Below are positions 1-34,901 of a stretch of DNA of 35,543 bases, in pieces. The position numbers and the translations under genes are program-made. Within the stretch, counting starts at the first letter, position 1. Every line of letters begins with the position of its first letter. The notes beneath the pieces are model-generated. The model did no database searches. It saw only the letters and a program-made list of their open reading frames with translations, and was not told the origin of the DNA. The stretch comes from Bacteroidota bacterium. GTDB lineage: Bacteria; Bacteroidota; Bacteroidia; Bacteroidales; CG2-30-32-10. The stretch covers positions 1 through 35,543 of the forward strand of contig JAAXXA010000002.1 in NCBI GenBank assembly GCA_013334735.1. Direction: 5' to 3'.

Positions 1-106
1 ACCACGACCACGACCCCGACCTCGACCACGACCTCGACCTCGACCACGACCACGACCCCGACCTCGACCCCGACCACGACCACGACCACGACCCCGACCT
101 CGACCC
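1..106. repeat. Tandem hexamer array (ACCNCG) x17, cut by the window edge
   Basis: There are 17 consecutive ACCNCG units from base 1, with N limited to A, C or T. A 24-nt higher-order unit accacgaccacgaccccgacctcg recurs at 1-24, 43-66 and 79-102. Confidence 0.95.
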
Positions 107-124
107 TATAAAAAACAATCCTAA
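2..124 (+). CDS. Possible 3' end of a plus-strand ORF ending in a (Pro-Arg)n tail (partial)
   Basis: The frame starting at base 2 reads CCN CGA repeatedly, with the variable base at the Pro wobble position. It then reads CCC TAT AAA AAA CAA TCC TAA, with the stop at 122-124. The Gly-Arg frame on the minus strand is immediately preceded by TAG (108..106) and so has no start. A non-coding repeat is an equally open reading. Confidence 0.3.
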   Translation, partial: PRPRPRPRPRPRPRPRPRPRPRPRPRPRPRPRPRPYKKQS

Positions 125-136
125 CATATAAAATCC

Positions 137-442
137 TTATTTCTGAGCATCAGGAAGTCTAGTTATAAACGTAAAATCTGCTATAGAATCAGTATTAATC
201 CAAACAGCATTAACAAAAGGTTCTACTTCGGAAAACTCTTCTTTTTTAAGAGCATCTGAAAATCTACCTGAATCTGCAATCCAAGCCGCTTTTTCAAGTT
301 TAACAAATTTACCTTTTATTTCAGTTACTTTTCCAGTAATGTGATAAGTGACTGTGCGAATAAATACATTGTCCCCAATTTCAAAAGGCAAATCATTTTT
401 AACACCAAGTAATTCTTTCAAATCTTTCAAACTAAATTCCAT
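137..442 (-). CDS. Hypothetical early protein (101 aa)
   Basis: Intact ORF with AAGGAGG 8 nt upstream of the ATG at 442. I recognise no motif. Confidence 0.8.
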   Translation of the reverse strand: MEFSLKDLKELLGVKNDLPFEIGDNVFIRTVTYHITGKVTEIKGKFVKLEKAAWIADSGRFSDALKKEEFSEVEPFVNAVWINTDSIADFTFITRLPDAQK

Positions 443-496
443 TTTATTTTCCTCCTTAATAATCTGCCGTGGAACGAATCGAACGTTCTTGATATT

Positions 497-532
497 TAAT
501 TATAAGTGAGTGAGCAGATCAACTTATAATTA
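497..532. repeat. Perfect 11-bp inverted repeat TAATTATAAGT / ACTTATAATTA with a 14-nt loop
   Basis: Read directly at 497-507 and 522-532, in the leader of the 137-442 gene. Confidence 0.8.
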
Positions 533-589
533 TATCACGCAATGTGCTGCTGGACTAGCGGCTGACCTTCAGCTAACACGGCAACCAAA

Positions 590-615
590 TAAAAACATTG
601 CTGGTTTTTCCCAGC
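590..615 (-). terminator. Second, weaker hairpin+U-tract element
   Basis: GCTGG-GAAAAA-CCAGC is followed by AATGTTTTTATTT on the minus strand. It shares the 10-mer AAAACATTGC (592-601) with 857-866. Confidence 0.3.
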
Positions 616-702
616 TGTCAGAGGGTTTCCAATTCACCGTCCCCACAACACGCATATTCTACCAGTAGCCGGATAGACGCAGAAATAAAATACAGGTCTT
701 TT

Positions 703-773
703 GCGATTATATCGGATTTGAACCTTAGACATCCCTTTCAGGTGCTCTACCAAACTGAGCTAACTATAATCGC
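703..773 (-). ncRNA. tRNA-like element lacking a recognisable anticodon arm (not a canonical tRNA)
   Basis: The minus strand reads GCGATTATAGTTAGCTCAGTTTGGTAGAGCACCTGAAAGGGATGTCTAAGGTTCAAATCCGATATAATCGC. It has an acceptor-like helix GCGATTATA/TATAATCGC, a D arm GCTC-AGTTTGGTA-GAGC and a T loop GG-TTCAAAT-CC. The anticodon position holds only CCT-GAA-AGG, and the T stem has only 2 Watson-Crick pairs. Confidence 0.5.
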
Positions 774-856
774 TACTGGTACGCCGAAATGAAGTCGTCG
801 CGCCTGATGCCCAGCTACGCTTTACCCTTCCGTCCAGACTTACTATGGAAACCATT

Positions 857-884
857 AAAACATTGCCGTGATATCGCTCACGGC
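857..884 (-). terminator. Hairpin terminator after the ERF-like gene
   Basis: GCCGTGA-GCGATA-TCACGGC (7 bp) is followed on the minus strand by AATGTTTTAAT. On the plus strand the same hairpin is followed by CGGCGTTTTT, so it may work in both directions. Confidence 0.5.
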
Positions 885-892
885 CGGCGTTT

Positions 893-1534
893 TTAAAGGA
901 GAACTTGTTCAGGTACTTTTAATGGTTTATCTACAAATCCAACTTGATTTTCTTCAATCTTTTTATTCATTGATTTCATTATCTCGTCTATCTGAGATAC
1001 ATCTAATCCATGTACAGTGTTCTTATTTGCGTCGCCAGTAACATTCTTCATTATTTCCTGCATTTGTGACAATTTAATTTTGCTTGTTCTGACGGCCTCT
1101 TTTATCTGTTCATTAGCCAATTTACGAATTTGCTCATTAGGGTCGTCTACAGACAGTGTTTTTGACTTTTTTTCCGGCTGTGTTTGAGCTTTATTTATCT
1201 CATCGGCAGAAGCTATAGAATCAATAATTCCCAAACCTAAAAAACCAAGACATCTACCAACAGCCGATGTCTCGCAATTCTCCATTGCGCTTGTTTTGTT
1301 GATATATCCATCACCCCAAGTAGCTTGGGAATAGCCTGTGAAAAAACGCTCCGGCTTGTTAATATCTGGAATAACAGTTGCTTTTATTACAACCATGTCA
1401 TCATCTGTTTTAGAAACTAATTCAGTCCTGATACAACCTTGTGGATATAGCTTGTTAAATTCAAGCACTCTGTCAGAAACTAGGATATATTTTTTACCTT
1501 TAATATCTATTGCTTTGTCTTTAAGATCACTCAT
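893..1534 (-). CDS. Putative ERF/Rad52-superfamily single-strand annealing protein (213 aa from the internal Met)
   Basis: The start at 1534 has AAAGGTGG upstream and an ATGAGTGA overlap with the preceding ORF. The pattern VVIKATVI...TGYSQA...NKTSAMENCETSAVGRCLGFLGLGIIDSIASADE resembles the P22 Erf core (YYVKATATI...TGATSSYARKYCLNGLFGIDD) as I recall it. Confidence 0.5.
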   Translation of the reverse strand: MSDLKDKAIDIKGKKYILVSDRVLEFNKLYPQGCIRTELVSKTDDDMVVIKATVIPDINKPERFFTGYSQATWGDGYINKTSAMENCETSAVGRCLGFLGLGIIDSIASADEINKAQTQPEKKSKTLSVDDPNEQIRKLANEQIKEAVRTSKIKLSQMQEIMKNVTGDANKNTVHGLDVSQIDEIMKSMNKKIEENQVGFVDKPLKVPEQVLL

Positions 1535-1811
1535 AAAAACCACCTTTTCCGTATTCTTCTTTAGGCTCTTCCGCAATCTTTTGTTTTTTCTCATAAGCAA
1601 TAACTTCAATAGCTACTTTTTGAGATAATAAAGCTATGCTTCCAATATCCTGTACACCAAAAAAGTCAGTCTGTTTCCAATTTCCTTCTTTGTCTTTGTA
1701 GCTTTTTTGAAACTTAAAAGATTTTCTGGCATAGTTTTTCCCTTCTACGGGCTGCTCAAATAGAGCGCATTCTACATCTCCAAACTTCCATACACGTGTT
1801 GGTTTAGCCAT
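1527..1811 (-). CDS. Hypothetical 94-aa protein, translationally coupled to the ERF-like gene
   Basis: GAAGGAG lies upstream of the ATG at 1811. The stop overlaps the next start. A role as a small nucleic-acid-binding partner is only a guess from position. Confidence 0.75.
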   Translation of the reverse strand: MAKPTRVWKFGDVECALFEQPVEGKNYARKSFKFQKSYKDKEGNWKQTDFFGVQDIGSIALLSQKVAIEVIAYEKKQKIAEEPKEEYGKGGFYE

Positions 1812-1812
1812 T

Positions 1813-1956
1813 TTATACTCCTTCTTCTCTAATTTCGTCTACTTTTCTGTCCCAGTATTCATCTTCCAAATCTGCTATATCTTCATCATCCGCGTATTGG
1901 TCCTCAGGACAGCCTGCTAAGTGATAACCACTGCATAAACATACTTCACAAAACAT
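1813..1956 (-). CDS. Small Cys-containing acidic protein (47 aa, below the ORF-track cutoff)
   Basis: Hand translation gives MFCEVCLCSGYHLAGCPEDQYADDEDIADLEDEYWDRKVDEIREEGV. It fills the gap between neighbouring ORFs exactly, and its stop sits in the RBS of the next gene. Confidence 0.5.
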   Translation of the reverse strand: MFCEVCLCSGYHLAGCPEDQYADDEDIADLEDEYWDRKVDEIREEGV

Positions 1957-1957
1957 T

Positions 1958-2125
1958 TCAAAACTCCAATTCGTTTTCTACAAACTCTTCAAAGTCTGAG
2001 CGATGATAAAAAGTGATTATAACTTCTTTCATTTTAGTAATATCTAAATAAGGATATTTAGTTATCAATTCTTTCAATTTTTCATCTGAAATAAATAACT
2101 GCAAACTCCAATTTTTCATTTTCAT
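1958..2125 (-). CDS. Hypothetical 55-aa protein (start moved to MKMKNW)
   Basis: GAGGAG lies upstream of the ATG at 2125. The longer ORF-track version would overlap the zinc-ribbon ORF. Confidence 0.6.
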   Translation of the reverse strand: MKMKNWSLQLFISDEKLKELITKYPYLDITKMKEVIITFYHRSDFEEFVENELEF

Positions 2126-2126
2126 A

Positions 2127-2273
2127 TTATTTCTCCTCTGGGATATTAAAAGATATGATATATCCGCAATTATCACATTTATAATTTTCAATATCTTCAG
2201 TTCTTTTTATAAATGTTGCCGTTGTTTCCAAGTCACAGAACGGGCACCAAAAAGGATCGATTTTATTATTCAT
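2127..2273 (-). CDS. Zinc-ribbon protein (48 aa)
   Basis: Hand translation gives MNNKIDPFWCPFCDLETTATFIKRTEDIENYKCDNCGYIISFNIPEEK, with CPFC...CDNC pairs. It has an ATGA start/stop overlap with the upstream gene. Confidence 0.6.
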   Translation of the reverse strand: MNNKIDPFWCPFCDLETTATFIKRTEDIENYKCDNCGYIISFNIPEEK

Positions 2274-2536
2274 TTTGCTTTCCTGTATTTTTTAATAATC
2301 TCGTTTTTTCTCCACTTGAATTGATATAATCTTGCTATCCAGAGAAAAAATGTTCCAACTAACCAAATTCCAACATACACTTGCCATAAAATGGTATAGA
2401 ATTTGAGCATATACCAGAAACTTTTTATTCCCCAGGAATAGGCTATCAAATACAAAACCAGACTTCCTCCCAATCCTACGATCAACATTGTAATTCCAAA
2501 AATTTTAATATCTCTTTTCATGATTTTCCAGATCAT
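2270..2536 (-). CDS. Small integral membrane protein (88 aa, about 3 hydrophobic helices)
   Basis: The start at MIWKIMK has GGAG upstream and an ATGA overlap with the preceding stop. The translation contains long hydrophobic stretches. Confidence 0.75.
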   Translation of the reverse strand: MIWKIMKRDIKIFGITMLIVGLGGSLVLYLIAYSWGIKSFWYMLKFYTILWQVYVGIWLVGTFFLWIARLYQFKWRKNEIIKKYRKAK

Positions 2537-2748
2537 TTTGATTCTCCGCAATACTTTTCAAAATTCTGTTCCCATTTCTTTTGAAAATCCGCGAATGATT
2601 GAACAGTAACATGATTGTAATTCTTGATAACATTTTCGATTGCTTTTTCGTAGAACCATTGAAGCCAAGTAATGATTTCTTCGCTGCTTTTGTTTTGTTT
2701 CTCCATAACGTCAAGGTTGAACTGAAGAGCTAACTCGTAACTACTCAT
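2533..2748 (-). CDS. Hypothetical 71-aa protein
   Basis: The start at MSSYEL follows GGAGG-TTTTT, immediately after the T8 tract of the leader terminator. Confidence 0.75.
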   Translation of the reverse strand: MSSYELALQFNLDVMEKQNKSSEEIITWLQWFYEKAIENVIKNYNHVTVQSFADFQKKWEQNFEKYCGESK

Positions 2749-2758
2749 AAAAACCTCC

Positions 2759-2821
2759 AAAAAAAATTAGCCACAACCCCGACCGATTTCTCGGCCCCCG
2801 CAAAGGAAGGGCTGTGGCTAA
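2759..2821 (-). terminator. Intrinsic terminator in the leader of the 2748 gene
   Basis: On the minus strand a 13-bp stem forms (TTAGCCACAGCCC/GGGTTGTGGCTAA, one G-U). Inside it is a 12-nt bulge and a GGCCGA-GAAA-TCGGTC hairpin. The structure is followed by T8 and then GGAGG. Confidence 0.6.
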
Positions 2822-2829
2822 TAAGCCGG

Positions 2830-2863
2830 CCTAATATTTGTTTTGCGGGTGCCAAATATTAGG
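2830..2863 (-). promoter_or_regulatory. Leader hairpin (11-bp perfect stem CCTAATATTTG/CAAATATTAGG)
   Basis: Read directly. Its loop CCCGCAAA (minus) is complementary to TTTGCGGG in the bulge of the downstream terminator. Confidence 0.6.
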
Positions 2864-2923
2864 TCAAAAACTTTTTACAGTTTTTAATTTATTTTTGGAA
2901 AATAATTGATTTATTATTTATTA

Positions 2924-2951
2924 ATTATAACTACATTTTTTAATTTGTCAA
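2924..2951 (-). promoter_or_regulatory. Sigma70-type promoter (TTGACA-16-TATAAT) pointing left
   Basis: The -35 is at 2951..2946 and the -10 at 2929..2924. It overlaps the last codons of the RHH gene. Confidence 0.6.
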
Positions 2952-2952
2952 G

Positions 2953-3108
2953 TCATTTTTTATTTTTTTCTAAAAATTCAATTAATATAGTTTTAACAAG
3001 GTTTGAAATTGGCCTATTTTGTCTTACAGCCTCATCGTTAAGACCCTTCAATAATTCTTCAGAAATGCGAAGATTAAACCTTTTGTTATTTATTTGTCCA
3101 ACATCCAT
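2953..3108 (-). CDS. Ribbon-helix-helix (CopG/Arc-like) DNA-binding protein, 51 aa
   Basis: Hand translation gives MDVGQINNKRFNLRISEELLKGLNDEAVRQNRPISNLVKTILIEFLEKNKK. This fits the classic RHH pattern (beta strand KRFNLRI, then two helices). AAGGACGG lies upstream. The ORF is below the ORF-track cutoff. Confidence 0.75.
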   Translation of the reverse strand: MDVGQINNKRFNLRISEELLKGLNDEAVRQNRPISNLVKTILIEFLEKNKK

Positions 3109-3150
3109 AATAACCGTCCTTTTATAAATTTTGCAGCCATTTTAGGAAAT

Positions 3151-3190
3151 TTGCACGACCCTTCCATAAATTTATGCTTTTTTGCACGAC
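3151..3190. promoter_or_regulatory. Direct repeat TTGCACGAC x2 (period 31 nt) upstream of the RHH gene; operator-like
   Basis: Copies lie at 3151-3159 and 3182-3190 (GTCGTGCAA on the minus strand). The spacing is about 3 helical turns. Confidence 0.4.
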
Positions 3191-3244
3191 TTCGGACGTG
3201 CTTTAAGTGGTTTAATGCGGCATTGCTGCCGCACCCGTCACCAT

Positions 3245-3340
3245 TTAATAATTTTGTATAATTAGTCTGTCAGTTCCTTCAATTTTTATGACTGTTGTAT
3301 GATTTTCTAAATCTTCCGTAAATCCTATAGTTACCTTCAT
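3245..3340 (-). CDS. Possible 31-aa ORF
   Basis: GGAAGGAG lies upstream of the ATG at 3340. The translation is MKVTIGFTEDLENHTTVIKIEGTDRLIIQNY. It is very short, so confidence is low. Confidence 0.35.
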   Translation of the reverse strand: MKVTIGFTEDLENHTTVIKIEGTDRLIIQNY

Positions 3341-3352
3341 AAAATCTCCTTC

Positions 3353-3517
3353 CTATTTACTTTTAGGTTTTTTCTCTTGCTGTTGGTTGTTATCATATGC
3401 GCTAGAAGCGATTGCAACGGCCTGCTCTTGAGATTTACCCTCATTGATAAGGATTGAGGCTATTCTTGCGATGTATTGATCTTTCGTTTCTCCTGTATTT
3501 GGATTCGGTATCGGCAT
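3353..3517 (-). CDS. Small protein (54 aa)
   Basis: The translation is MPIPNPNTGETKDQYIARIASILINEGKSQEQAVAIASSAYDNNQQQEKKPKSK. It is the first ORF downstream of the 3581 promoter. Confidence 0.55.
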   Translation of the reverse strand: MPIPNPNTGETKDQYIARIASILINEGKSQEQAVAIASSAYDNNQQQEKKPKSK

Positions 3518-3551
3518 AAAAATACCCCCAAGATGTTTTTATCTTAGTGGT

Positions 3552-3581
3552 ATTATAAAGCAGATAATTATCGGAATTCAA
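3552..3581 (-). promoter_or_regulatory. Sigma70-type promoter (TTGAAT-18-TATAAT) with the palindrome GATAATTATC in the spacer
   Basis: The -35 is at 3581..3576 and the -10 at 3557..3552. A perfect 10-bp palindrome sits between them. Confidence 0.55.
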
Positions 3582-3588
3582 TAGTTTT

Positions 3589-3948
3589 CTATTTTATTTT
3601 TGAATATTTTACCCTATTTATAGTACAACCTTTTACTGTTAATAAAACAATAAACACCGATATTTTTCCACATTTTGAACATTTTATTAATTGTTCATTC
3701 TTTGTTTCGTTTTTTACCCTATTCCCGTATGCCAACGAACAACATTCCGGGCAATAATAAGGGCGCACCAAGCTGAAAGTAGAATGAAGCTCTTTGTTTA
3801 TTTCTTCTATTGCTTCTATGGCATATAAAACCGTTGATTTTGGGTTGTTAACAATACAGGCCACAGGGCTTAAAAGACCGGAAACTCTATGGATTGTTTT
3901 CCCGTCGCATTTTGCTAAAACTTCGGACTTAAACTCTACGTATTTCAT
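3589..3948 (-). CDS. Hypothetical zinc-ribbon protein (119 aa)
   Basis: It has CPEC...CSKC pairs. GGAAGGGG lies upstream of the ATG at 3948. Confidence 0.8.
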   Translation of the reverse strand: MKYVEFKSEVLAKCDGKTIHRVSGLLSPVACIVNNPKSTVLYAIEAIEEINKELHSTFSLVRPYYCPECCSLAYGNRVKNETKNEQLIKCSKCGKISVFIVLLTVKGCTINRVKYSKIK

Positions 3949-3973
3949 AAAAATCCCCTTCCTACTTTAAGTA

Positions 3974-4008
3974 GGAGAAAACGGGCCGGGTAATTACTCC
4001 GACCCGGC
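3974..4008 (-). terminator. Hairpin GCCGGGT/ACCCGGC followed by CCGTTTTCTCC
   Basis: A 7-bp GC-rich stem at 4008..4002 / 3991..3985 is followed by a short T tract on the minus strand. It lies downstream of the acidic gene. Confidence 0.45.
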
Positions 4009-4096
4009 GGCTTACCACACCGCAAGGCGACATTAACCGGCTTCGGACGGTTCCTTTCGGAGCGTTTTAATTCCCCCTTTCTGGGGAACCCGTCAA

Positions 4097-4594
4097 CTAA
4101 TAATTATATCTATAACATACATATCTAGACCAATCACAACCGCCAAGATCATCGCTATGGTCTGCAACATCAAGCGGGTCAACTGCATACATAATACCAT
4201 AAGTTATGTCGTCTATATCAATTGTATCCTCAAAGTACTCAGCGTTGCTGTCGTCTCTCATCCCGTCTTGGTAAGGTTGTACATTTAATTTTAGCAATTC
4301 TTCAATAATTTCCGCATCTTTTGCGTTGTCCAACTCAACTGCGTCGTCTGGGACATAAGGATTAGGACTGCCATAGCTAAATTCCTCCGTGTCTACGATC
4401 TCATAAGTTGGTCTGTCCGCCTCTCCATGAGCAAGATAATAAGTCCCGTCCTCTAAGTTGTCAATTACTAATTGTGCCTCTGCCTCTGTCTCGTACTCAT
4501 CACAGTTACTATCAGGATTGCTATTATACCAGTGATCAATATGAGGTGGCAAACTGCCCCTGTAATAACAAGGCGTTACTTTAATCCTATACAT
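4097..4594 (-). CDS. Highly acidic early protein (165 aa), first gene of the leftward operon
   Basis: GGAAGGAG lies upstream. By my count there are about 39 Asp+Glu against 9 Arg+Lys. Confidence 0.85.
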   Translation of the reverse strand: MYRIKVTPCYYRGSLPPHIDHWYNSNPDSNCDEYETEAEAQLVIDNLEDGTYYLAHGEADRPTYEIVDTEEFSYGSPNPYVPDDAVELDNAKDAEIIEELLKLNVQPYQDGMRDDSNAEYFEDTIDIDDITYGIMYAVDPLDVADHSDDLGGCDWSRYVCYRYNY

Positions 4595-4713
4595 ATAATC
4601 TCCTTCCCTCTATTGAGGGAGTGTTACAACCGGAGTAATTAGTTCCGATTGACCCCCTTTTCTTAGGAGGATTTTGAGACCGCAAAACTTTGCGCTCTCT
4701 GTTGTACGCCCAC

Positions 4714-4759
4714 AGTATGACACAGATTTCTAAGTTTGTCAATCCCACTTTCAGTCGGA
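4714..4759 (-). promoter_or_regulatory. Leftward promoter P_A: TCCGACT element + TTGACA-17-TGtCATACT
   Basis: The -35 is at 4742..4737, the -10 at 4719..4714 with an extended TG, and the upstream element AGTCGGA (plus) at 4753-4759. The same architecture occurs at 28675-28719 and 31624-31669. Confidence 0.6.
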
Positions 4760-4928
4760 TTTTTACAAAAATGGGAGAAAATGCTTGTAGATCAAGGAAA
4801 AAAACTTTAAAAAATATTTTTTTTTGTTCAAAAACCCCGACCAAACGTCGGTATTTATGCCAATAATATATATTTAATTATATATAATATAAGTAATAAA
4901 AAAATAGTTGAAAAAAAACAAACTCGTA

Positions 4929-5018
4929 GAACTATTGATAACACTACATTCTTATTTTTTTTGGTATCGTAACTCTATATAAGACAATTAGTCACGAACT
5001 ATTTGACAACACTATATT
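4929..5018 (+). repeat. Two copies of a ~22-nt box GAACTATTGAYAACACTAYATT
   Basis: Copies lie at 4929-4950 and 4996-5018. The second contains the -35 of the rightward promoter. Confidence 0.7.
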
Positions 5019-5032
5019 TTTTATGTTATAAT
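5003..5032 (+). promoter_or_regulatory. Rightward sigma70-type promoter (TTGACA-18-TATAAT)
   Basis: The -35 is at 5003-5008 and the -10 at 5027-5032. It sits upstream of a ~440-nt leader preceding terS. Confidence 0.6.
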
Positions 5033-5252
5033 TCTTCTATAAGAGCTACAATTAGCGACCGAGCTATGCGAGGCAACCGTTTACCCATACGACCAACAAC
5101 TAACAAAATATATACCACAAATATATATTAGGTTTCACAATTATCACATCATCACCCACAAATCAACATCCCAAAAGTATCAAAATTTAGCTATCCACAA
5201 CAAACAAATTCCTATAACATGTATTATGTTAAGTACAACACAGTTTGTATTA

Positions 5253-5273
5253 ACATTGTAGGTACATTGTAGG
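5253..5273 (+). repeat. Tandem ACATTGTAGG x2 (period 11) with a third partial TACAT
   Basis: Read directly at 5253-5262 and 5264-5273. Confidence 0.85.
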
Positions 5274-5330
5274 GGGTACATCAAAAATTGGGGGAGTGTT
5301 TCTAGGTAGGGTTTGTTTAGAGATTACCTC

Positions 5331-5352
5331 TTAATGACATATTAATGACATA
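5331..5352 (+). repeat. Perfect tandem duplication TTAATGACATA x2
   Basis: Read directly at 5331-5341 and 5342-5352, about 130 nt upstream of terS. Confidence 0.9.
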
Positions 5353-5375
5353 TAGGAATTATTTTAGGGGTAAGC

Positions 5376-5501
5376 ATGACAAATTTAGATATGGCATTAC
5401 TGATAGACAGGTATAGAAGAGAGATATGTAGATTATGTAATGTATTGAAGTTAGAAATAATATTTGAGAATGATGGGGTAATATGGAGAATAAGATATTA
5501 A
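5376..5501 (+). CDS. Possible 41-aa ORF overlapping the terS start
   Basis: AGGGGT lies upstream of the ATG at 5376. The translation is MTNLDMALLIDRYRREICRLCNVLKLEIIFENDGVIWRIRY. Support is weak. Confidence 0.25.
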   Translation: MTNLDMALLIDRYRREICRLCNVLKLEIIFENDGVIWRIRY

Positions 5502-27972: not shown

Positions 27973-28350
27973 ATGAGCGAGGACAAAATGCCAAGACTTG
28001 ATATGAGCTACGAAATTATTAAAGAGCAGTGGGAAGATTTTAAGACAAATATTTTATCTCAGATTAATGAAATAAAAGAAAACATTCGGCGATTATCAGA
28101 TGAACAAAGAGTTTTTCTTAAACTGCAAAACGACATCGAGTTGAAAAGAGAAAAACAGATCGCCGAAATCAATCTTGAAATTATGTCTCAGAAAAAAGAT
28201 TGTGATAAATGCAGGAGTGGATTTCAAAACAGAATAGAAACTCTGGAAAAAGCTCCCGAGCGTACAAAATCAAATTGGCAATTTTTGACAGCCATTCTAT
28301 TTGGATTGTTAGGTGTTATTATATCCGCTATAGCGTTATTCAGGAGGTAA
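27973..28350 (+). CDS. Coiled-coil protein with a C-terminal membrane anchor (125 aa), lysis-region
   Basis: The C-terminus WQFLTAILFGLLGVIISAIALFRR is hydrophobic. It is adjacent to the holin-like ORF. Confidence 0.6.
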   Translation: MSEDKMPRLDMSYEIIKEQWEDFKTNILSQINEIKENIRRLSDEQRVFLKLQNDIELKREKQIAEINLEIMSQKKDCDKCRSGFQNRIETLEKAPERTKSNWQFLTAILFGLLGVIISAIALFRR

Positions 28351-28352
28351 AT

Positions 28353-28556
28353 GTGTTTGATTTTTTAAAAGAAATGATTAGTGGCCCAAAAGGGGAAATT
28401 TCTTCCAAAAGAGTTTTAGGAACAATATGTGTTATTGCTGGGATAGTATTTGCTTTTATATCTGTTTTGGGAGGAAAACCGGATGCAGCGACATGCGGAA
28501 TAATTTTTGGGACAGGCGCAACATTTCTAACTGCGGCCGCAATATCGCACACTTGA
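28353..28556 (+). CDS. Holin-like two-TM protein (67 aa, GTG start)
   Basis: AGGAGG lies 5 nt upstream of the GTG at 28353. There are two hydrophobic helices (LGTICVIAGIVFAFISVLG; CGIIFGTGATFLTAAAI). The longer ORF-track version (28209) overlaps the previous gene in another frame. Confidence 0.55.
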   Translation: MFDFLKEMISGPKGEISSKRVLGTICVIAGIVFAFISVLGGKPDAATCGIIFGTGATFLTAAAISHT

Positions 28557-28583
28557 TCAATTAATAAGTTGGTTTGCAAGGTG

Positions 28584-28668
28584 AAAAAAGAAACCTAAAA
28601 AGAAAGCATAGAGGCTATCTATTTGGGACGGATGTTGTCGCCTCCCTACCGGCGATCAAGACAAATAG
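28584..28668 (-). ncRNA. Candidate small RNA downstream of promoter P_B
   Basis: A nested hairpin (CTATTTG 28619-28625 / CAAATAG 28662-28668, with inner TCGCC/GGCGA) starts a few nt after the predicted TSS. T-rich runs follow on the minus strand. Confidence 0.3.
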
Positions 28669-28674
28669 GAATAT

Positions 28675-28719
28675 ATTCTAACACAAAAATAATTTTTGTC
28701 AATCACCCTAAAAGTCGGA
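28675..28719 (-). promoter_or_regulatory. Leftward promoter P_B: TCCGACT element + TTGACA-16-TGtTAGAAT
   Basis: The -35 is at 28702..28697, the -10 at 28680..28675, and the element at 28713-28719. It points antisense toward the end of the late operon. Confidence 0.5.
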
Positions 28720-29801: not shown

Positions 29802-30319
29802 GCGGTAGCTCGATTAATTTCCGGTGTACTAACGGAGATCGTTATGATAGCTCTGCTGTATTGCTGGATGATAGAGGGTTTGAGATATTTTCCTCTCAAT
29901 ATGTCAATACCGATTCCACAAACAGCTACAAGGGTGGTCGCCTTTCCTGCGGGTGTTACTATGGGATAGTTGGATATAGGACCTCCGGTCAAAGAGTGAT
30001 AAAACTATTTTCTAGCAAAGCAGATATTACTAAGATCAAAACAGATAGAGACATTCCAGATTCAATGTTTGCTCTTTCATCAGATATACCTAATTCTAAC
30101 CATGACAATGCATATTATATTGAGTATGTTCAAATTCATTCAGGGGGCACAAGCTGGGATTATAGTCATGGATGTGTTTCTGTTTTAAACTATGGATTAA
30201 ATCCTAACGGAAAAAAATATGAAGAATTTGATAGATTGATGTCTTTTCTAAAAGACAATGAAATCATAATCATCAAACTTTCTCTCGACGAAGGAGTCAA
30301 AACTTTTACGCAGCAATAA
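29777..30319 (+). CDS. Candidate endolysin with an SHGC (YkuD/L,D-transpeptidase-like) motif (180 aa from MKILEV)
   Basis: AAGGAG RBS at the internal Met. IHSGGTSWDYSHGCVSV resembles the His...SHGC catalytic signature, though the His-to-Cys spacing is shorter than in the canonical motif. It is the last gene of the lysis region. Confidence 0.4.
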   Translation: MKILEVKRGGSSINFRCTNGDRYDSSAVLLDDRGFEIFSSQYVNTDSTNSYKGGRLSCGCYYGIVGYRTSGQRVIKLFSSKADITKIKTDRDIPDSMFALSSDIPNSNHDNAYYIEYVQIHSGGTSWDYSHGCVSVLNYGLNPNGKKYEEFDRLMSFLKDNEIIIIKLSLDEGVKTFTQQ

Positions 30320-30935
30320 GTTTGCTAATATATTCTACTCCCTTTGCATTTACTAAAGTCTGTGGTTTGTTAAATACATTTCCAGACATCTCTATAGGTT
30401 TTTCAATTACCTTAAAATATCCTTTATCCATTTCTTTCTGATAAGGTGTATTATTTCCCATCAATATATTTTTATTTCTCAATTTAGAAAATAAAGTATT
30501 TCTACCAATTCCTAAAATGTGTGCTACTTCGTTCATTGATTGCCAACTTTCAGAAGATAAAAACTTGTCGTAAGTCAATACTTTTGGTTTCATTGTTTCG
30601 ATTTGTTCTGCTTGATCGGCAGCAAGTCTAAGAGCTTCTGCGAATGTTTGCGGTAATGTAGGTTTATTTTTGTTTTCAAGTTCAATCCAACGGTCAATAA
30701 TTTTTGTTCTCAATTCTACAGAATAACCAGATATTAAAATCATTATTTCACGATGGGGCAATCTATAACATTTTCTTTCTTCTCTATTAGCTCCCATGTA
30801 AACCGCCTCAAATTTGAGGTGGTCATCTAATTGTGTTTCAATATCACGAATTACATTGTCGTGTCTTTTATTTGTTAGTTCGGCAATCTCTCTGCTATCC
30901 ATCCATAATTCCTGCTTGATAATCAAATCATTCAT
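30306..30935 (-). CDS. Rha-family regulatory protein with a KilAC/antirepressor C-terminal domain
   Basis: The N-terminus SREIAELTNKRHDNVIRDIE is typical of Phage_pRha. The C-terminus (WQSMNEVAHILGIGRNTLFSKLR) is typical of KilAC/Ant domains. Confidence 0.8.
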   Translation of the reverse strand: MNDLIIKQELWMDSREIAELTNKRHDNVIRDIETQLDDHLKFEAVYMGANREERKCYRLPHREIMILISGYSVELRTKIIDRWIELENKNKPTLPQTFAEALRLAADQAEQIETMKPKVLTYDKFLSSESWQSMNEVAHILGIGRNTLFSKLRNKNILMGNNTPYQKEMDKGYFKVIEKPIEMSGNVFNKPQTLVNAKGVEYISKLIAA

Positions 30936-30948
30936 ATTTACACCTCAT

Positions 30949-30991
30949 AAAAAAAGTCCCTGGAATCCAATTGCAGATGGAAACCAGAGAC
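30949..30991 (-). terminator. Intrinsic terminator in the leader of the Rha gene
   Basis: On the minus strand GTCTCTGGTTTCC / GGATTCCAGGGAC (10 of 13 pairs) is followed by T7. The RBS (GAGGTG) comes immediately after. Confidence 0.55.
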
Positions 30992-31057
30992 TTAAAACAC
31001 CGATTAACCGGAAAATAAATAATCTGCAATACTTATTTAAGTTCCTCTATTCTCATT

Positions 31058-31086
31058 ATTATACACCAATTTTTATCGTTTGTCAA
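31058..31086 (-). promoter_or_regulatory. Consensus sigma70 promoter (TTGACA-17-TATAAT) pointing left
   Basis: The -35 is at 31086..31081 (overlapping the stop of the upstream gene) and the -10 at 31063..31058. Confidence 0.6.
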
Positions 31087-31598
31087 GGTAAAGGTATTTC
31101 TTGAGTTATCAATATTCTTGCTTTTCTTTCACATTCCTGTGCATTCTCTTCTTCTAAATCATGCTCTTCATCATGAGTTAAATGATAGCATTCATGCATA
31201 ATTGTAACAGCTATATTATCATAACTTACATCTTCTATATAGTTTTTCATAAAGTAACTATCATCCATATTAAATACAAAATAAATAGTATTTTTTCTAG
31301 AATCATCAATATGAGAATCATTAACATAAGCTATAGCTCTCTTGCATATTCCAACTGGATAATAATCAATCTCTATTCTATTTACTTTTGCTAGTCTCAA
31401 TATTTTAATCATGTTTAAATAATTCAGTTTTTCTAACGCAATATAAATCTTAGTAGCAAACTTCTTGGGCGCAGTTACTTTCACACCATAAATCTTAAAC
31501 GTCACTTCTGTATATGGCGCAACCTGATCGTAAGCAGCCGAATGAACAAAAGAAAAAATAAAGAAGATCAATAAAACAACTAAAATAAATCGTTTCAT
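31083..31598 (-). CDS. Secreted HExxH protein (putative zinc metalloprotease), 171 aa
   Basis: It has an N-terminal signal-like MKRFILVVLLIFFIFSFVHSAAY, the HExxH motif in IMHECYHLTHDEEHD, and an AGGAGG RBS. Confidence 0.6.
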   Translation of the reverse strand: MKRFILVVLLIFFIFSFVHSAAYDQVAPYTEVTFKIYGVKVTAPKKFATKIYIALEKLNYLNMIKILRLAKVNRIEIDYYPVGICKRAIAYVNDSHIDDSRKNTIYFVFNMDDSYFMKNYIEDVSYDNIAVTIMHECYHLTHDEEHDLEEENAQECERKARILITQEIPLP

Positions 31599-31692: not shown

Positions 31693-31890
31693 TTATATTT
31701 TTGTTTGCCTGATTGTTATTTCTATTTTTGTATTGTTTAATACGCAGTGTAACTCACTATAAGAAAAATTTTTCGCAATTATTTCTTTATCTATTTCAGA
31801 TACAAACAATGTTCCGTCTTCTTCTATTTTATCAATATTAAATAATTCGCTAAATGTGGCAAGCCATGTTTTTCCGCTAACAAATTCCAT
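31693..31890 (-). CDS. Hypothetical 65-aa protein
   Basis: GGAGG RBS. It overlaps the end of the SDR gene. Confidence 0.6.
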   Translation of the reverse strand: MEFVSGKTWLATFSELFNIDKIEEDGTLFVSEIDKEIIAKNFSYSELHCVLNNTKIEITIRQTKI

Positions 31891-32656
31891 TTAGTTTCCT
31901 CCATTCTTTGTATTCATAAATTATATTTCGCATTTCATACGCATTATCTACATTATCGTCCTTAAATTTGTTTATAATACCAAAATAATCTAATAAATGA
32001 TGTAACTTTATTGGCCCAACGTTATTTTTTAAATCAAAATAAGTATTTAATTGTGTTTCTAATATTTCATAACTTATTAAAAAATGTCTTATTATATCAT
32101 ATAGTATACGTGGAGTAATGTAATATAACTTTTTATTCTCTCTAGTCGTGATATTAAACTCATCCCCATCTTTAATATGTTTCAATATATTGCTCATTAA
32201 GAATCCACTATCTAAATTTATCCATCTGCTAAAATAGGCTGGTATTCTGAGATCAATAATATTTAATTCCGGCAATAATCTGTGTTTCATTTCTAAGTAT
32301 TGTTTATTAATTTTATAATGATGCTGCCTATCTCCATATCGTATGTCTTTAGTTACAATCCAGCTACTCATATTGATATAAATAGGTTTTGTTTTATGTT
32401 TTAAATAATCAATAATTATATTGTCAATATAATTATAATCCCATAAATCCTGATAATCGATCGTTGATATTTTAGAAGCGGTTCCTTTCCCGACGCAATT
32501 GATTATTATATTAGGGTTTATTTTGTATAAATAATATTGCCATTCACTATCTCTGCATGATAAAGTGCTTAATTGAATATCTTTATCCTGTTCAAAATAG
32601 TATATCAAACCTTTAGCAATATGGCTAGTGCTACCTAATATCAATACTTTTTTCAT
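31877..32656 (-). CDS. SDR-like NAD(P)-dependent sugar reductase or epimerase (259 aa)
   Basis: It has a Rossmann-like N-terminus KKVLILGSTSHIAKG and a YxxxK (YKINK). The sugar-operon context supports the call. Confidence 0.5.
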   Translation of the reverse strand: MKKVLILGSTSHIAKGLIYYFEQDKDIQLSTLSCRDSEWQYYLYKINPNIIINCVGKGTASKISTIDYQDLWDYNYIDNIIIDYLKHKTKPIYINMSSWIVTKDIRYGDRQHHYKINKQYLEMKHRLLPELNIIDLRIPAYFSRWINLDSGFLMSNILKHIKDGDEFNITTRENKKLYYITPRILYDIIRHFLISYEILETQLNTYFDLKNNVGPIKLHHLLDYFGIINKFKDDNVDNAYEMRNIIYEYKEWRKLNGIC

Positions 32657-32657
32657 G

Positions 32658-32981
32658 TTAATCTTTGCTTGTTTCTATAACTTTGTTAATACCATATTCT
32701 ATTATATTATATCCGGTGCGATATATTTTTCCGTGTTCACTATTTTTATAAAATTTTTCATCTGGTAATTTATCTATAGTTGCCTTTTTCCATTTTTCAT
32801 ATTCTTCCCAATCACAAGATAAATAAGTTGTTCCATCAGATCGGGTTAGTATTCTATTTCCACTAGAAATAGCTTTTTTTTTCAAATAATTAACAATTGC
32901 TTTTAAAGCGTTTTCTTTTGTGTCAGACATAACATGATAAGATAATCCATAATCATTGTATTCAAAAGAATATAATTTCAT
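32658..32981 (-). CDS. Hypothetical 107-aa protein in the sugar operon
   Basis: ATGA overlap with the rfbH-like stop. No motif. Confidence 0.7.
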   Translation of the reverse strand: MKLYSFEYNDYGLSYHVMSDTKENALKAIVNYLKKKAISSGNRILTRSDGTTYLSCDWEEYEKWKKATIDKLPDEKFYKNSEHGKIYRTGYNIIEYGINKVIETSKD

Positions 32982-34174
32982 ACAAAATACTCCTCAATAG
33001 TTTTTACAATATAGTCTATTTCCTTCTTTCCAATGCCTGGATGGCAGCCTATCCACAATGTATTTTCAGATACATAATCAGCTATTGGATAATCCTGTTT
33101 ATCGCTATAAGAAAGATAGGCTGGATGCTTAGTAAAGTTACCAGCAAATAGAGGGCGTGTAGCTATTCCTTTTGATTCTAAATAATCAACAAATTGTTTT
33201 CTTCTGTTTTTATTAGAGAGTGTCATGGGGAATCCAAACCATGAAGGAATAGAATCTTTTTCAAATCCATGGAGTTTTAAATCTTTTATGTGTTTTAATT
33301 TCCCAAACAATGTAGAGTTATTCAATACTCTTTTTACTACAAACTTATCTAATCTTTTAAATTGAGCCACACCAATAGAAGCGCATAATTCAGGCATTTT
33401 TAGATTGTATCCAATATGTTCTACCACTGACTTGTGATCATAGCCAAAAGGAAGCTTTCCATATTTCTGAGAGAATCTTTTTCCGCAAAGATTATCTTTA
33501 TTTGGAGGACAAACACAAGCCCTTCCCCAGTTACAATAAGACTGGATAATATTATATAACTCAGTATCATTAGTACAGACCGCCCCTCCCTCGCCTGTAG
33601 TAATGTGATGAGCTGGATAAAAACTTAGTGTTGATATGTGTCCGAATGAACCTGTCTTTTTTTCTTTATACACACTTCCTAAAGCGTCGCAGTTGTCTTC
33701 AATCAACCATAGCTTATGCTTCTTGCAGATAGCCATAATCTTTGTCATGTTGCACGGATTCCCAAGTGTATGCACTATGAATATTGCCTTAGTCTTTTTA
33801 GTTATTTTAGATTCTATTTGATTCTCGTCAATATTAAGTGTATCCAATTTGATATCTACAAACACAGGCACTAGGTTGTTTTGTAATATTGGGTTTAAAG
33901 TAGTAGGAAATCCGCATATAGAAGTAATAACTTCATCTCCAGCTTTAATATGGTTCTTGAGATTTGGAGAAGTTAATGCTGTCATTGCTAACAAGTTAGC
34001 TGAAGACCCTGAATTACAAAGAGCAGTATGTTTTACTCCAAGATATTCTGATAATAGTTTAGGAAGTATTCTTGTGTTTTTCCCTGCCGCATAATCGCCT
34101 TTAAATACTGCTTTAATAAGCGTCCATATTTCTGGAAGTCCTGTGATAGCTTTTCCTGTTGTAATTCGTTTCAT
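32978..34174 (-). CDS. rfbH: RfbH/DdhC (E1)-type PMP-dependent CDP-4-keto-6-deoxyglucose 3-dehydratase
   Basis: Several blocks match Salmonella RfbH as I recall it: SGSSANLLAMTALTSP, GDEVITSICGFPTTLNP, SFYPAHHITTGEGGAV (His in place of the PLP Lys), NWGRACVCPPNKDNLCGKRF (Fe-S Cys cluster), GYDHK, PSWFGFPMTL. Confidence 0.9.
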   Translation of the reverse strand: MKRITTGKAITGLPEIWTLIKAVFKGDYAAGKNTRILPKLLSEYLGVKHTALCNSGSSANLLAMTALTSPNLKNHIKAGDEVITSICGFPTTLNPILQNNLVPVFVDIKLDTLNIDENQIESKITKKTKAIFIVHTLGNPCNMTKIMAICKKHKLWLIEDNCDALGSVYKEKKTGSFGHISTLSFYPAHHITTGEGGAVCTNDTELYNIIQSYCNWGRACVCPPNKDNLCGKRFSQKYGKLPFGYDHKSVVEHIGYNLKMPELCASIGVAQFKRLDKFVVKRVLNNSTLFGKLKHIKDLKLHGFEKDSIPSWFGFPMTLSNKNRRKQFVDYLESKGIATRPLFAGNFTKHPAYLSYSDKQDYPIADYVSENTLWIGCHPGIGKKEIDYIVKTIEEYFV

Positions 34175-34177
34175 TAG

Positions 34178-34891
34178 TTACTCCTTATAATTATCAATAT
34201 AACTTTTTAGTTTTGACACTTCTAAATCTCTCAGTCCTTGTGTGCCTTGATAAACAGCTTGATCGTAAGCGAACCAATTATTCATCTCATCTATAATCAA
34301 TTGATCAGGTTCTACTTTCATAAGCACAGGGCTGGAATGTTCAACCTCTATTTCTTTCAAGTATTCAGTTTTTCCAAGCTTTGAAAATACATAGTATATC
34401 CAGTTGTCAGAGAAGTAATGCTTTAACATATGACACGAATAATTTCTTGTTACCTGCAAGTAATTTTTATGAACTATATAATGACGAGGCAATGTTTCAC
34501 TTCCGGCTCCATCATTAATCCACCTACAAAATATTTTATCTTTTGTGTCTGACTTGAATTTATCTATAATAATCTTATCCCAATCTTTTGTTTTAAATTC
34601 AAGATCATTTGACACAGCAAATAACAATTCATTGTTTGCCATCTGCCCTAAGTAATTAAACTTATCATTGAGATGGTACGGACGTTTAAATTGGTGTAAT
34701 TGATAATCCAATTCTAAATCATTGACGTCTAACTTTTGAAAGAATTCATACAACTGGTCTTCTTCATCTACGTCATAGCCAAACACTATTTCAATATTTT
34801 CTGGATCGTTAACAGTATCAATAATAGATTGCAAACACTTTTTTAGTTTCTCAAGTCGTCCTCTTGTAGCTAGCAATAATGATATCTTCAT
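34178..34891 (-). CDS. Putative GT-A/GT2-like glycosyltransferase (start moved to MKISLLL)
   Basis: AAGGAGG lies upstream of the ATG at 34891. The N-terminus MKISLLLATRGRLEKLKKCLQSIIDT...IEIVFGYDVDEED fits the GT2-like layout. Confidence 0.45.
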   Translation of the reverse strand: MKISLLLATRGRLEKLKKCLQSIIDTVNDPENIEIVFGYDVDEEDQLYEFFQKLDVNDLELDYQLHQFKRPYHLNDKFNYLGQMANNELLFAVSNDLEFKTKDWDKIIIDKFKSDTKDKIFCRWINDGAGSETLPRHYIVHKNYLQVTRNYSCHMLKHYFSDNWIYYVFSKLGKTEYLKEIEVEHSSPVLMKVEPDQLIIDEMNNWFAYDQAVYQGTQGLRDLEVSKLKSYIDNYKE

Positions 34892-34901
34892 GTTTCCTCC
34901 T

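Follow-up and report, generated by a model that had tools for sequence, protein, structure and literature searches.

A leader hairpin complementary to its operon's own terminator: a putative RNA control element for early genes of an AT-rich phage

Introduction

The stretch of DNA analyzed here (hereafter the window) comprises 35,543 nucleotides, positions 1 to 35,543 of the forward strand of contig JAAXXA010000002.1 in assembly GCA_013334735.1. This 35.5-kb phage contig, AT-rich with 33.6% G+C, derives from a biofilm metagenome. On its minus strand, between positions 2951 and 2759, a promoter that matches the consensus at every position is followed by a leader hairpin and a strong intrinsic terminator, and only then by the ribosome binding site (RBS) of the first gene. 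The question that this locus raises is why such a terminator should stand between a promoter of this quality and its gene, and what is to be made of eight nucleotides in the leader hairpin loop that are exactly complementary to eight unpaired nucleotides of the terminator. We read this unit, hereafter module A, as a promoter-proximal attenuator of transcription and, at the same time, as the source of a short leader RNA, with the loop-terminator contact as its regulatory and specificity element, and from the sequence evidence set out below we would give this reading a probability of roughly 0.6. In particular, we infer that the contact sets or addresses termination. The element looks like an undescribed RNA control element for phage early genes; a design in which a leader loop kisses a terminator is not in Rfam, and a full-text literature search found none.

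Module A

Coordinates of module A and of the second copy described below are those of the minus strand, which was read directly, with base pairs listed one by one. The features are given here with the evidence for each (MFE, minimum free energy; SD, Shine-Dalgarno sequence; ORF, open reading frame).

2951..2924, minus strand: promoter TTGACA-16-TATAAT, with TTGACA at 2951..2946 and TATAAT at 2929..2924 (12/12 consensus match)
2923..2864, minus strand: AU-rich 5' leader of about 55 nt, without AUG and without SD (sequence and MFE fold)
2863..2830, minus strand: leader hairpin H1, CCUAAUAUUUG (2863..2853) with CAAAUAUUAGG (2840..2830), 11 Watson-Crick pairs (fold and pair list)
2852..2841, minus strand: H1 loop, 12 nt, GCACCCGCAAAA (pair list)
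2849..2842, minus strand: kissing strand 1, CCCGCAAA, in the H1 loop (unique exact match)
2829..2822, minus strand: 8-nt linker from H1 to the terminator, CCGGCUUA (sequence)
2821..2767, minus strand: intrinsic terminator hairpin (pair list; −32.9 kcal/mol for the hairpin alone)
2804..2797, minus strand: kissing strand 2, UUUGCGGG, in the terminator bulge (exact reverse complement of 2849..2842)
2766..2759, minus strand: U8 tract, directly abutting GGAGG (2758..2754)
2533..2758, minus strand: orphan ORF of 71 aa behind GGAGG (2758..2754) and ATG (2748..2746), the first operon gene past the terminator

The outer stem of the terminator joins 2821..2809 to 2779..2767 in 13 pairs, including G2812-U2776, and may reach 15 with U2808-G2780 and A2822-U2766, while the inner stem joins 2796..2791 to 2786..2781 in 6 pairs, including G2795-U2782, under a GAAA cap (2790..2787). 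The bulge UCCUUUGCGGG (2807..2797) lies on the 5' side. An earlier note on this locus had described the leftward promoter, the 11-bp perfect hairpin, the 13-bp plus 6-bp GAAA-capped terminator with its T8 and GGAGG-ATG, and the exact 8-nt complementarity between loop and bulge, and direct reading confirms all of these at the positions listed above. The bulge, which that note had put at 12 nt, is present, with a size of 11–12 nt set by whether U2808-G2780 forms. A G+C-rich hairpin followed by a U-tract of 7–9 nt is the signature of an intrinsic terminator and is what we find at 2821..2767 with its U8; a simple terminator scanner missed it solely owing to the bulge.

On the plus strand the three G-U pairs of the fold would become C-A mismatches; the fold therefore belongs to the minus-strand RNA alone and, as had been proposed, is a feature of the sense transcript. 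Folding of 2925..2745, a check that the earlier note had suggested, gives −60.6 kcal/mol with z = −5.7 against 200 shuffles. Both 8-mers occur only once in the window and their duplex has a predicted stability of −14.3 kcal/mol. The chance of finding 8 contiguous complementary nucleotides between a 12-nt loop and an 11-nt bulge is 2e-4 to 4e-3, where the range reflects the choice of null model.

The 5' leader holds a weak hairpin AAAAACUGUAAAAAGUUUUU (2887..2864), and its segment CCAAAAA can pair in read-through RNA with the U-tract and the GG of the SD (UUUUUGG), overlapping the SD. From the predicted start (about 2917) to the terminator there is neither an AUG nor an SD; since there is no leader peptide, classical ribosome-mediated attenuation, one of the mechanisms offered at the outset, falls away. 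The promoter scan found no antisense promoter at module A. Rfam gave no match on the element, whether for the whole window at the gathering score or for 2600..3300 and 1..5500 at E <= 10, with only Twister-P5 nearby, plus noise. Because a strong terminator precedes the first RBS and leaves no room for another promoter, downstream expression needs read-through; to this extent the earlier argument from the terminator stands, while the conditional nature of the read-through belongs to the mechanism proposed below.

Module B

When the window was scanned for promoters of consensus sequence, and for strong hairpins that lead into T runs (T >= 6, hairpin ΔG <= −9 kcal/mol), a second unit, module B, came to light, with the following features.

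31086..31058, minus strand: promoter TTGACA-17-TATAAT (12/12), its −35 overlapping the stop codon of ORF 31083..31598
31038..31013, minus strand: weak leader hairpin, a 9-bp A/U stem with the 8-nt loop UUGCAGAU (31029..31022) (MFE fold)
30993..30954, minus strand: terminator, a 10-bp basal stem, 2x2 internal loop, 4-bp stem and 8-nt loop UCUGCAAU (30977..30970) (fold and T-run scan)
30955..30949, minus strand: U7 of the terminator (sequence)
30306..30948, minus strand: RBS GAGGUG, ATG at 30935 and Ant/Rha antirepressor gene of 209 aa (phrog_63, E = 1e-55; PF03374 (ANT) and PF09669 (Phage_pRha))

In module B as well, a segment of the leader hairpin, AUUGCAGAU, is the exact reverse complement of AUCUGCAAU at the terminator apex (7–9 nt), and 7 of the pairs lie within the two 8-nt loops (UUGCAGA/UCUGCAA; chance p = 2e-4 to 8e-4). 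The only AUG of this leader sits upstream of the predicted transcript start. The two modules have in common a 12/12 promoter upstream, an abutting RBS and a leader loop complementary to the unpaired apex or bulge of the terminator, and in the T-run scan they were the only compact, G+C-rich hairpins with a T run of at least 7 in the intergenic sequence of the window. Their joint chance, taken as the product of the per-module p-values, is about 1e-7 to 3e-6. The pairing sequences themselves are unrelated, and this complete difference argues against a shared ligand pocket; a riboswitch-like mechanism, which the earlier note had also considered, likewise finds no riboswitch or ribozyme family match.

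Covariation in an Analogous Gut-Phage Family

As a control we scanned loci fetched for other purposes for a complement of at least 7 nt between the unpaired apex of a terminator-like hairpin and the loop of an upstream hairpin. The 621 terminator-like hairpins in 142 loci yielded about 0.8% dubious matches outside related contigs, and one clean match on L099, an AT-rich 6.6-kb viral contig that was among the IMG/VR matches listed for the pattern CCCGCAAA-N15-45-TTTGCGGGG. The more than 118 matches listed for that pattern are ordinary hairpins or unrelated sequence, and the module A element itself is not among the matches listed. Relatives of L099 were retrieved through a neighboring protein and through DNA patterns of the conserved stems, and a metagenome scan added two contigs. 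The resulting AT-rich ruminant-gut phage contigs (L099 and L139–L148) each carry two promoter-hairpin-terminator modules, C and D, which lie about 1.1 kb apart and head an early operon that includes an ERF recombinase. Each module consists of a promoter TTGACA-17-TGnTAtnAT, a 13–14-bp hairpin with a 7-nt loop, a linker of 7–9 nt, a terminator of about 22 bp that also has a 7-nt loop, and U5–6.

An alignment of five distinct C modules shows the 7-bp loop-loop helix paired in 100% of cells, with 3/7 kissing pairs changed on both sides, vs. 0/21 pairs of the terminator stem. Further variants of the kissing sequences came from contigs of bovine, goat and sheep gut metagenomes that were placed on the locus, each pair being linked on a single contig. 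Module D occurs with seven kissing codes (CTCAACC/GGTTGAG, CGCAACC/GGTTGCG, CTCGACC/GGTCGAG, AGCGACC/GGTCGCT, CACGACC/GGTCGTG, CACAACC/GGTTGTG and CGCGACC/GGTCGCG) and module C with four (CTCTACC/GGTAGAG, CCGTACC/GGTACGG, CCACACC/GGTGTGG and CCCTACC/GGTAGGG), and every one of them is 7/7 Watson-Crick. Since the loop-loop pairs co-vary perfectly, the contact between leader loop and terminator apex has been kept by selection in at least one phage lineage, and judged from these sequences the covariation is as clean as in any accepted RNA motif. The earlier suggestion that the complementarity of module A is meaningful gains from this result, as it does from the recurrence of the design before the antirepressor gene.

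Modules A and B are analogous to C and D in layout, not homologous in sequence. All four modules combine a promoter, a leader hairpin, an intrinsic terminator, an RBS and a loop complement of at least 7 nt. Covariation that maintains the pairing is found in C and D, where the 11 variants are all paired; for A and B, which are without homologues, the differing pairing sequences of the paralogous modules are the sole support of this kind.

The C/D modules also show conserved flanks besides the hairpins (at 1491..1633 and 2577..2717 of L146, and in L099, L139–L145 and L148). Close to where the transcript is predicted to start, the 5' segment AUAAUGAUU can pair with its complement AAUCAUUAU, which lies a few nucleotides past the U-tract, so that a closing helix is possible in the read-through RNA only, where the MFE fold is a three-way junction of −54 kcal/mol; a conserved box AAAAGCAGAUUGAAAAUU precedes the RBS. 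The pairing of CCAAAAA with UUUUUGG in module A is a weaker analogue of this closing helix. Rfam gave no match on L146, the C/D family had no match in genome_contigs, and one rumen metatranscriptome touches C/D-related elements at the conserved flanking boxes only. A weak host clue is offered by the ERF gene, which is about 69% identical to the ERF of C. difficile phages.

Genome Context

The rightward structural genes of the phage start from a perfect promoter at 5003 and the leftward early genes from about 4740, wrapping round the contig end. Perfect 12/12 promoters number four in the window, against about 0.1 expected by composition (our own estimate). The gene that lies upstream of module A is the following.

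2953..3108, minus strand: ribbon-helix-helix (RHH; Arc/CopG-like) gene of 51 aa (Pfam RHH_5, CopG and RHH_1 matches, all under the gathering score)

This gene ends beside the −35 of promoter A, which begins 2 nt past its stop codon, and on this arrangement its product is a candidate repressor of that promoter. Downstream of module A, the 71-aa protein had no homologues among 5.8 billion proteins. It is followed by small ORFs and then by a PF27148 (Slr1353_N) family protein whose function is unknown (893..1534), and the small early-operon ORFs and the PF27148 region correspond to PHROG families of unknown function. The PF27148 protein has many homologues, and the five phage contexts examined through it had no comparable module and no Rfam RNA.

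No close relatives of the phage were present in GenBank phages (searched as DNA), in IMG/VR or in the 5.8-billion-protein collection; IMG/VR held no relatives of the terminase, the 71-aa protein or Ant, and genome_contigs none of Ant. With no close relatives in the collections searched, homologues of the element itself could not be found. The sole other copy of the phage sequence is an identical Logan contig of 4.9 kb. Among GenBank phages the Ant/Rha genes (1175 records) are at most 41% identical, and two Vibrio phage contexts have an RHH-Rha arrangement or a plain terminator and no kissing module. In one of them (Vibrio phage 2.095.A, MG592664.1, 1322..2154) a CopG-like RHH gene lies immediately 5' of the Rha/Ant homologue, in the manner of arc-ant in P22, and by analogy this supports viewing the RHH and ant genes of the window, though apart, as an immI-like control system.

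Several further features of the early region are worth recording. A leader hairpin, GAGAGCGCAAAGUUUUGCGGUCUC (4700..4676, minus strand), belongs to what is probably the main leftward promoter (TTGACA-17-TGtCATACT, 4742..4714); the stem of this hairpin uses CGCAAA/UUUGCG, as in the kissing helix of module A. Two Twister-P5 ribozymes (Rfam RF02684; 50.3 and 38.3 bits, gathering score 37.6) lie at 3185..3242 and 4036..4097 on the minus strand, each within a G+C-rich island that shortly precedes the start of a gene (3108 and 3948); beyond the second, another structured, G+C-rich stretch extends over 4035..3968. The Twister-P5 copies at five further loci, on IMG/VR viral contigs (L129–L133), all stand just upstream of an RBS, and these five loci have no downstream element resembling module A.

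Within the early operon, 443..892 (minus strand) is a 450-nt ORF-free, G+C-rich gap within which lies a degenerate tRNA-like element (769..706): its acceptor stem, D-arm and T-loop are intact, whereas the anticodon arm is truncated and the T stem is broken. This element scores 16.7 bits with the tRNA model and receives no call from ARAGORN. The element is nested in the long-range complements GGUUUCCA/UGGAAACC and UACCAGUAGC/GCUACUGGUA and flanked by hairpins at 884..865 and 615..600, each followed by AAUGUUUU, with an MFE not better than that of shuffles. It may serve as a signal for processing by RNase P, or represent a new structured RNA.

Elsewhere in the window, the perfect rightward promoter (5003..5032) is followed by a C-rich, nearly G-free leader of about 340 nt (5033..5480, plus strand) before the first gene of the structural module, a composition typical of a Rho-utilization site. 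The early strand also carries a sugar or base-modification gene set (31877..35486, minus strand), with the C-terminal domain of a thiamine pyrophosphate (TPP)-binding enzyme (34902..35486), a family-2 glycosyltransferase (34178..34936) and a DegT/DnrJ/EryC1 aminotransferase (32978..34174), which by their families are candidates for DNA hypermodification or host-surface modification. ORF 31083..31598 has an HExxH motif and a signal-peptide-like N-terminus. At 28560..28702 (minus strand), within the rightward late region, lies a leftward 11/12 promoter whose −10 is extended (TTGACA-16-TGtTAGAAT); downstream of it, antisense to the end of ORF 28209..28556, come a G+C-rich stretch and two T runs; the transcript may be an antisense RNA, and its fold is not better than shuffles (z = −0.15). 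Finally, an imperfect hexamer repeat ACC-N-CG (ACCACG/ACCCCG/ACCTCG, about 19 copies) occupies the contig end at 1..117 and may be the reason why the assembly stops there; read on the minus strand it is G-rich, (GGUCGN)n, and its translation would give Arg-Gly repeats.

Proposed Mechanism

We propose that the consensus sigma-70-type promoter of module A fires into a leader of about 155 nt without coding potential, and that transcription would mostly end at the U8. The nascent RNA would fold H1 and then the long terminator, and only polymerases that read through would express the early operon. Pairing of the H1 loop with the terminator bulge would form an 8-bp kissing or H-type pseudoknot contact, and would do so co-transcriptionally, given that polymerase, once it has completed the bulge strand, still has 17 nt to go to the start of the 3' strand of the basal stem and 38 nt to the end of the U-tract. 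Such a contact would tie the 5' strand of the basal stem into a closed loop, delay closure of the terminator and favor read-through. The terminated short leader RNA would meanwhile accumulate, occupy the H1 loop of nascent transcripts in trans before the terminator apex appears, and restore termination. The outcome would be a self-limiting, sequence-addressed and immunity-like control of the kind known from P4 CI, P1/P7 c4 and Gifsy-1 IsrK, with a second module that has its own orthogonal pairing sequence placed before the phage antirepressor gene.

The geometry of modules C and D bears on the direction of this effect. By our own estimate, with a 13–14-bp H1, a terminator of about 22 bp and a linker of 7–9 nt, the apical loops meet only with 11 bp of the basal stem open. 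Since they cannot meet with the basal stem closed, this favors a contact that competes with completion of the terminator. That the short terminated RNA may also act in trans on nascent leaders is suggested by the many distinct codes and by the presence of two orthogonal modules per genome. The context, too, fits leader-RNA control by analogy, with module B before an antirepressor gene, as for IsrK and c4, and module A behind an Arc-like RHH gene.

Several observations weigh against this picture. The target in module A is a bulge, not an apical loop, and a compact pistol-like fold that coexists with the complete terminator looks sterically possible; in such a fold the contact could stabilize the terminator instead of opposing it, and the 20-nt linker of module B allows both states. 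Module A has no homologues in any collection searched, so that the covariation comes from an analogous family and not a homologous one. The variable loops could reflect drift with compensation and not selection for trans specificity, and the metagenome variants differ at many other module positions too, and run X28 possibly contains an intermediate with a U-G pair, or else a variant that is unpaired. Finally, the phage sequence occurs in only two DNA runs, and no RNA run contains the window.

A more far-reaching version, which we put forward tentatively and consider rather doubtful, is that the modules form an unrecognized class of self-addressed RNA attenuators, in which a diffusible leader RNA regulates its own operon and a 7–8-nt kissing code sets immunity or timing specificity. 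In phages whose hosts are AT-rich and probably Firmicutes, this would amount to RNA-only heteroimmunity of the P4 or P1 c4 type, with an intrinsic terminator's apex as its direct target. If it were true, the many perfectly matched codes and the two orthogonal modules, one of them guarding an antirepressor, would be explained.

Leader-RNA control of termination is known from a handful of classical cases, namely P4, P1/P7, N15, IsrK and plasmid copy-number control, and here uncultivated phages present a compact and easily recognized design in no fewer than three sequence families that are unrelated to one another. If the contact does tune termination, it would do so by a simple physical principle, a tertiary or kissing contact set against closure of the basal stem, and the 7-nt loops would amount to naturally occurring orthogonal "addresses." It would then become possible to predict directly from phage sequence how early genes and antirepressors are controlled and, perhaps, which immunity group a phage belongs to, and the module design would be a ready-made programmable part for synthetic transcription control.

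Alternative Explanations

Read-through at module A might instead be mediated by a protein, a phage or host factor of the Q-, N- or LoaP-like type or a Rop-like protein that binds the kissing complex, with the loop pairing serving only to build a shape that the factor or RNA polymerase recognizes. Terminators placed right after strong promoters typify the control of lambda PR'-tR' by Q, and the put RNA of HK022 is an RNA shape recognized by RNA polymerase itself. Further terminator-like hairpins in the leftward operon (4851..4837, 884..865 and 615..600) would be in keeping with processive antitermination, zinc-ribbon proteins and several small proteins of unknown function are encoded nearby, and the inner stem of the terminator ends in a GNRA loop that is loosely boxB-like. 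However, the neighboring ORFs have no Q, N, NusG/LoaP or Rop-like domain according to Pfam and PHROGs, although very divergent factors could escape such searches, and the leader has no boxA-like sequence as judged by eye. Moreover, modules A, B and C/D offer no common sequence for a single protein to read, the pairing alone being conserved. We consider this explanation unlikely, though it deserves attention.

We give about the same weight to the idea that the module is an unregulated leaky terminator or a stable small RNA (sRNA) gene, the product of which, about 155 nt long, would have trans targets of its own or none, with a fixed fraction of read-through and a contact that merely compacts the RNA or protects it from nucleases. 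A promoter, a structured RNA and a long U-tail are the standard anatomy of a bacterial sRNA, and the C/D closing helix, which forms in read-through RNA only, could simply protect the 5' end of the mRNA. A possible trans target is also at hand, since CCGCAAAA of the H1 loop is exactly complementary to UUUUGCGG (4687..4680) in the leader hairpin of the main leftward promoter; this complementarity could be a trans target, an operator palindrome or a coincidence. Against this, a constitutively strong terminator (−33 kcal/mol, with a U8) ahead of an early operon would be costly, and it is specifically at the heads of operons and ahead of an antirepressor gene that the design occurs. The eleven compensated loop pairs indicate selection on the contact itself, though this is compatible with a structural role.

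It seems very unlikely to us that the 8-mers are the inverted half-sites of a DNA-binding protein, such as the adjacent RHH repressor, and that their pairing in RNA is incidental. The RHH gene does adjoin promoter A, a close CGCAAA/TTTGCG palindrome lies just past the main leftward promoter (4700..4676) in the manner of an operator, and a shift in repressor specificity would mimic covariation by changing both half-sites. Yet the putative half-sites are 37–45 bp apart and fall exactly in the unpaired loop and bulge of two RNA hairpins in four independent module types, two modules per genome with different sequences would need two proteins, and the surrounding stems contain G-U pairs, which point to a strand-specific fold.

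Little more can be said for a ligand-sensing riboswitch or a self-cleaving ribozyme, to which we assign a similarly slight chance. The topology of module A does match that of pistol, with a P1 loop that forms a pseudoknot with an internal loop and an 8-nt linker, and two Twister-P5 copies lie 230 and 1170 nt upstream in the same operon, new ribozyme classes having been found beside twister ribozymes before. But no pistol, riboswitch or ribozyme model matches at E <= 10 on a 701-nt stretch, the 3' side, on which the G-U cleavage site of pistol lies, is left with 0 unpaired nucleotides, and modules A, B and C/D share no conserved junction nucleotides or unpaired consensus. Several other candidates were tried and rejected: a hammerhead (the wrong stems kiss, and the core is missing), a purine-riboswitch-like three-way junction (no junction conservation), and a CRISPR-repeat mimic and a replication-primer or origin element (no supporting features for either). 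That the complementarity of module A is mere coincidence is hardly credible, for although some 17 8-mer inverted repeats at 30–60 nt spacing are expected per 35-kb genome by our own estimate, and the earlier note had scanned the whole window, the position-specific probabilities of both modules, the background of about 0.8% in the control scan and the covariation in the analogous family all speak against it.

Comparison With Known Systems

The closest relatives of the proposed attenuator in logic are leader RNAs of temperate phages, and the likeness is one of logic only, as Rfam models of C4 (P1/P7 c4, P4 CI), isrK and ColE1 RNA I have no match in the window or in L146. The c4 RNA of P1/P7 lies upstream of icd-ant, and pairing within its leader decides the expression of the antirepressor operon. 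For the CI RNA of P4 (seqA/seqB/seqC), pairing of a hairpin loop in the untranslated leader with later sequences of the transcript decides premature termination (PMC4825925). Both are like module A in having a constitutive promoter, an untranslated leader and a hairpin loop complementary to a later sequence in the same transcript, and in P4 and P1/P7, too, the complementary sequences differ between heteroimmune relatives. They differ in that the target in module A is the unpaired apex or bulge of an intrinsic terminator, whereas there it is an RBS or a Rho-dependent site, in that no RNase P-type processing signal is evident beside module A, and in that action in trans is here a proposal drawn from the sequences. 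IsrK of Gifsy-1 has a promoter, a small RNA with a Rho-independent terminator and partial read-through into an antirepressor operon, and the read-through form of the transcript is the target, in trans, of the short form that ends at the terminator (PMC4825925). The layout of promoter, terminator and read-through upstream of an antirepressor is thus shared; however, IsrK acts on the translation of orf45-anrP through long helices, vs. a 7–8-bp loop contact with the terminator here.

Kissing loops of about 7 complementary nucleotides, with compensated diversification that confers specificity, are familiar from plasmids (ColE1 RNA I/RNA II and the attenuation systems of pT181 and pIP501), and in pT181 and pIP501 kissing leads to formation of a leader terminator within a short kinetic window. 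In those systems the loops lie on two RNAs from opposite strands, whereas here both are on one sense transcript. The zipper attenuator of the pLS20 family, which heads a long operon in a mobile element of Firmicutes, has a weak upstream stem-loop complementary to a downstream intrinsic terminator, with the paired form as the antiterminator state (PMC13401043). Its complementarity extends a central long stem and consumes the terminator stem, whereas in the modules described here pairing is limited to the loops or the bulge, a central stem is lacking and the two hairpins can remain folded.

The lambda PR'-6S RNA-tR'/Q system is similar in having a strong promoter, an efficient intrinsic terminator within about 150–200 nt and a short RNA as its product unless the polymerase is modified. 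It differs in that no Q-like gene or binding element was found in the present locus, in that the genes downstream here are those of the early region and the antirepressor, not late genes, and in that lambda is not known to have loop-terminator pairing. The pistol ribozyme is alike in fold only, its 5' hairpin loop forming a pseudoknot with the 5' strand of an internal loop between outer and inner helices across an 8-nt linker; the conserved pistol nucleotides and the G-U cleavage junction on the 3' side are absent from module A, in which the outer helix runs for 13–15 bp and is followed by the U8.

None of P4 CI, P1/P7 c4, IsrK and the pLS20 zipper is known to have a contact between a leader loop and the apex of a terminator. 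In kind, then, the element belongs with the known leader attenuators and leader-derived regulatory RNAs, and what appears to be new in it is a loop that kisses the apex or bulge of the operon's own intrinsic terminator.

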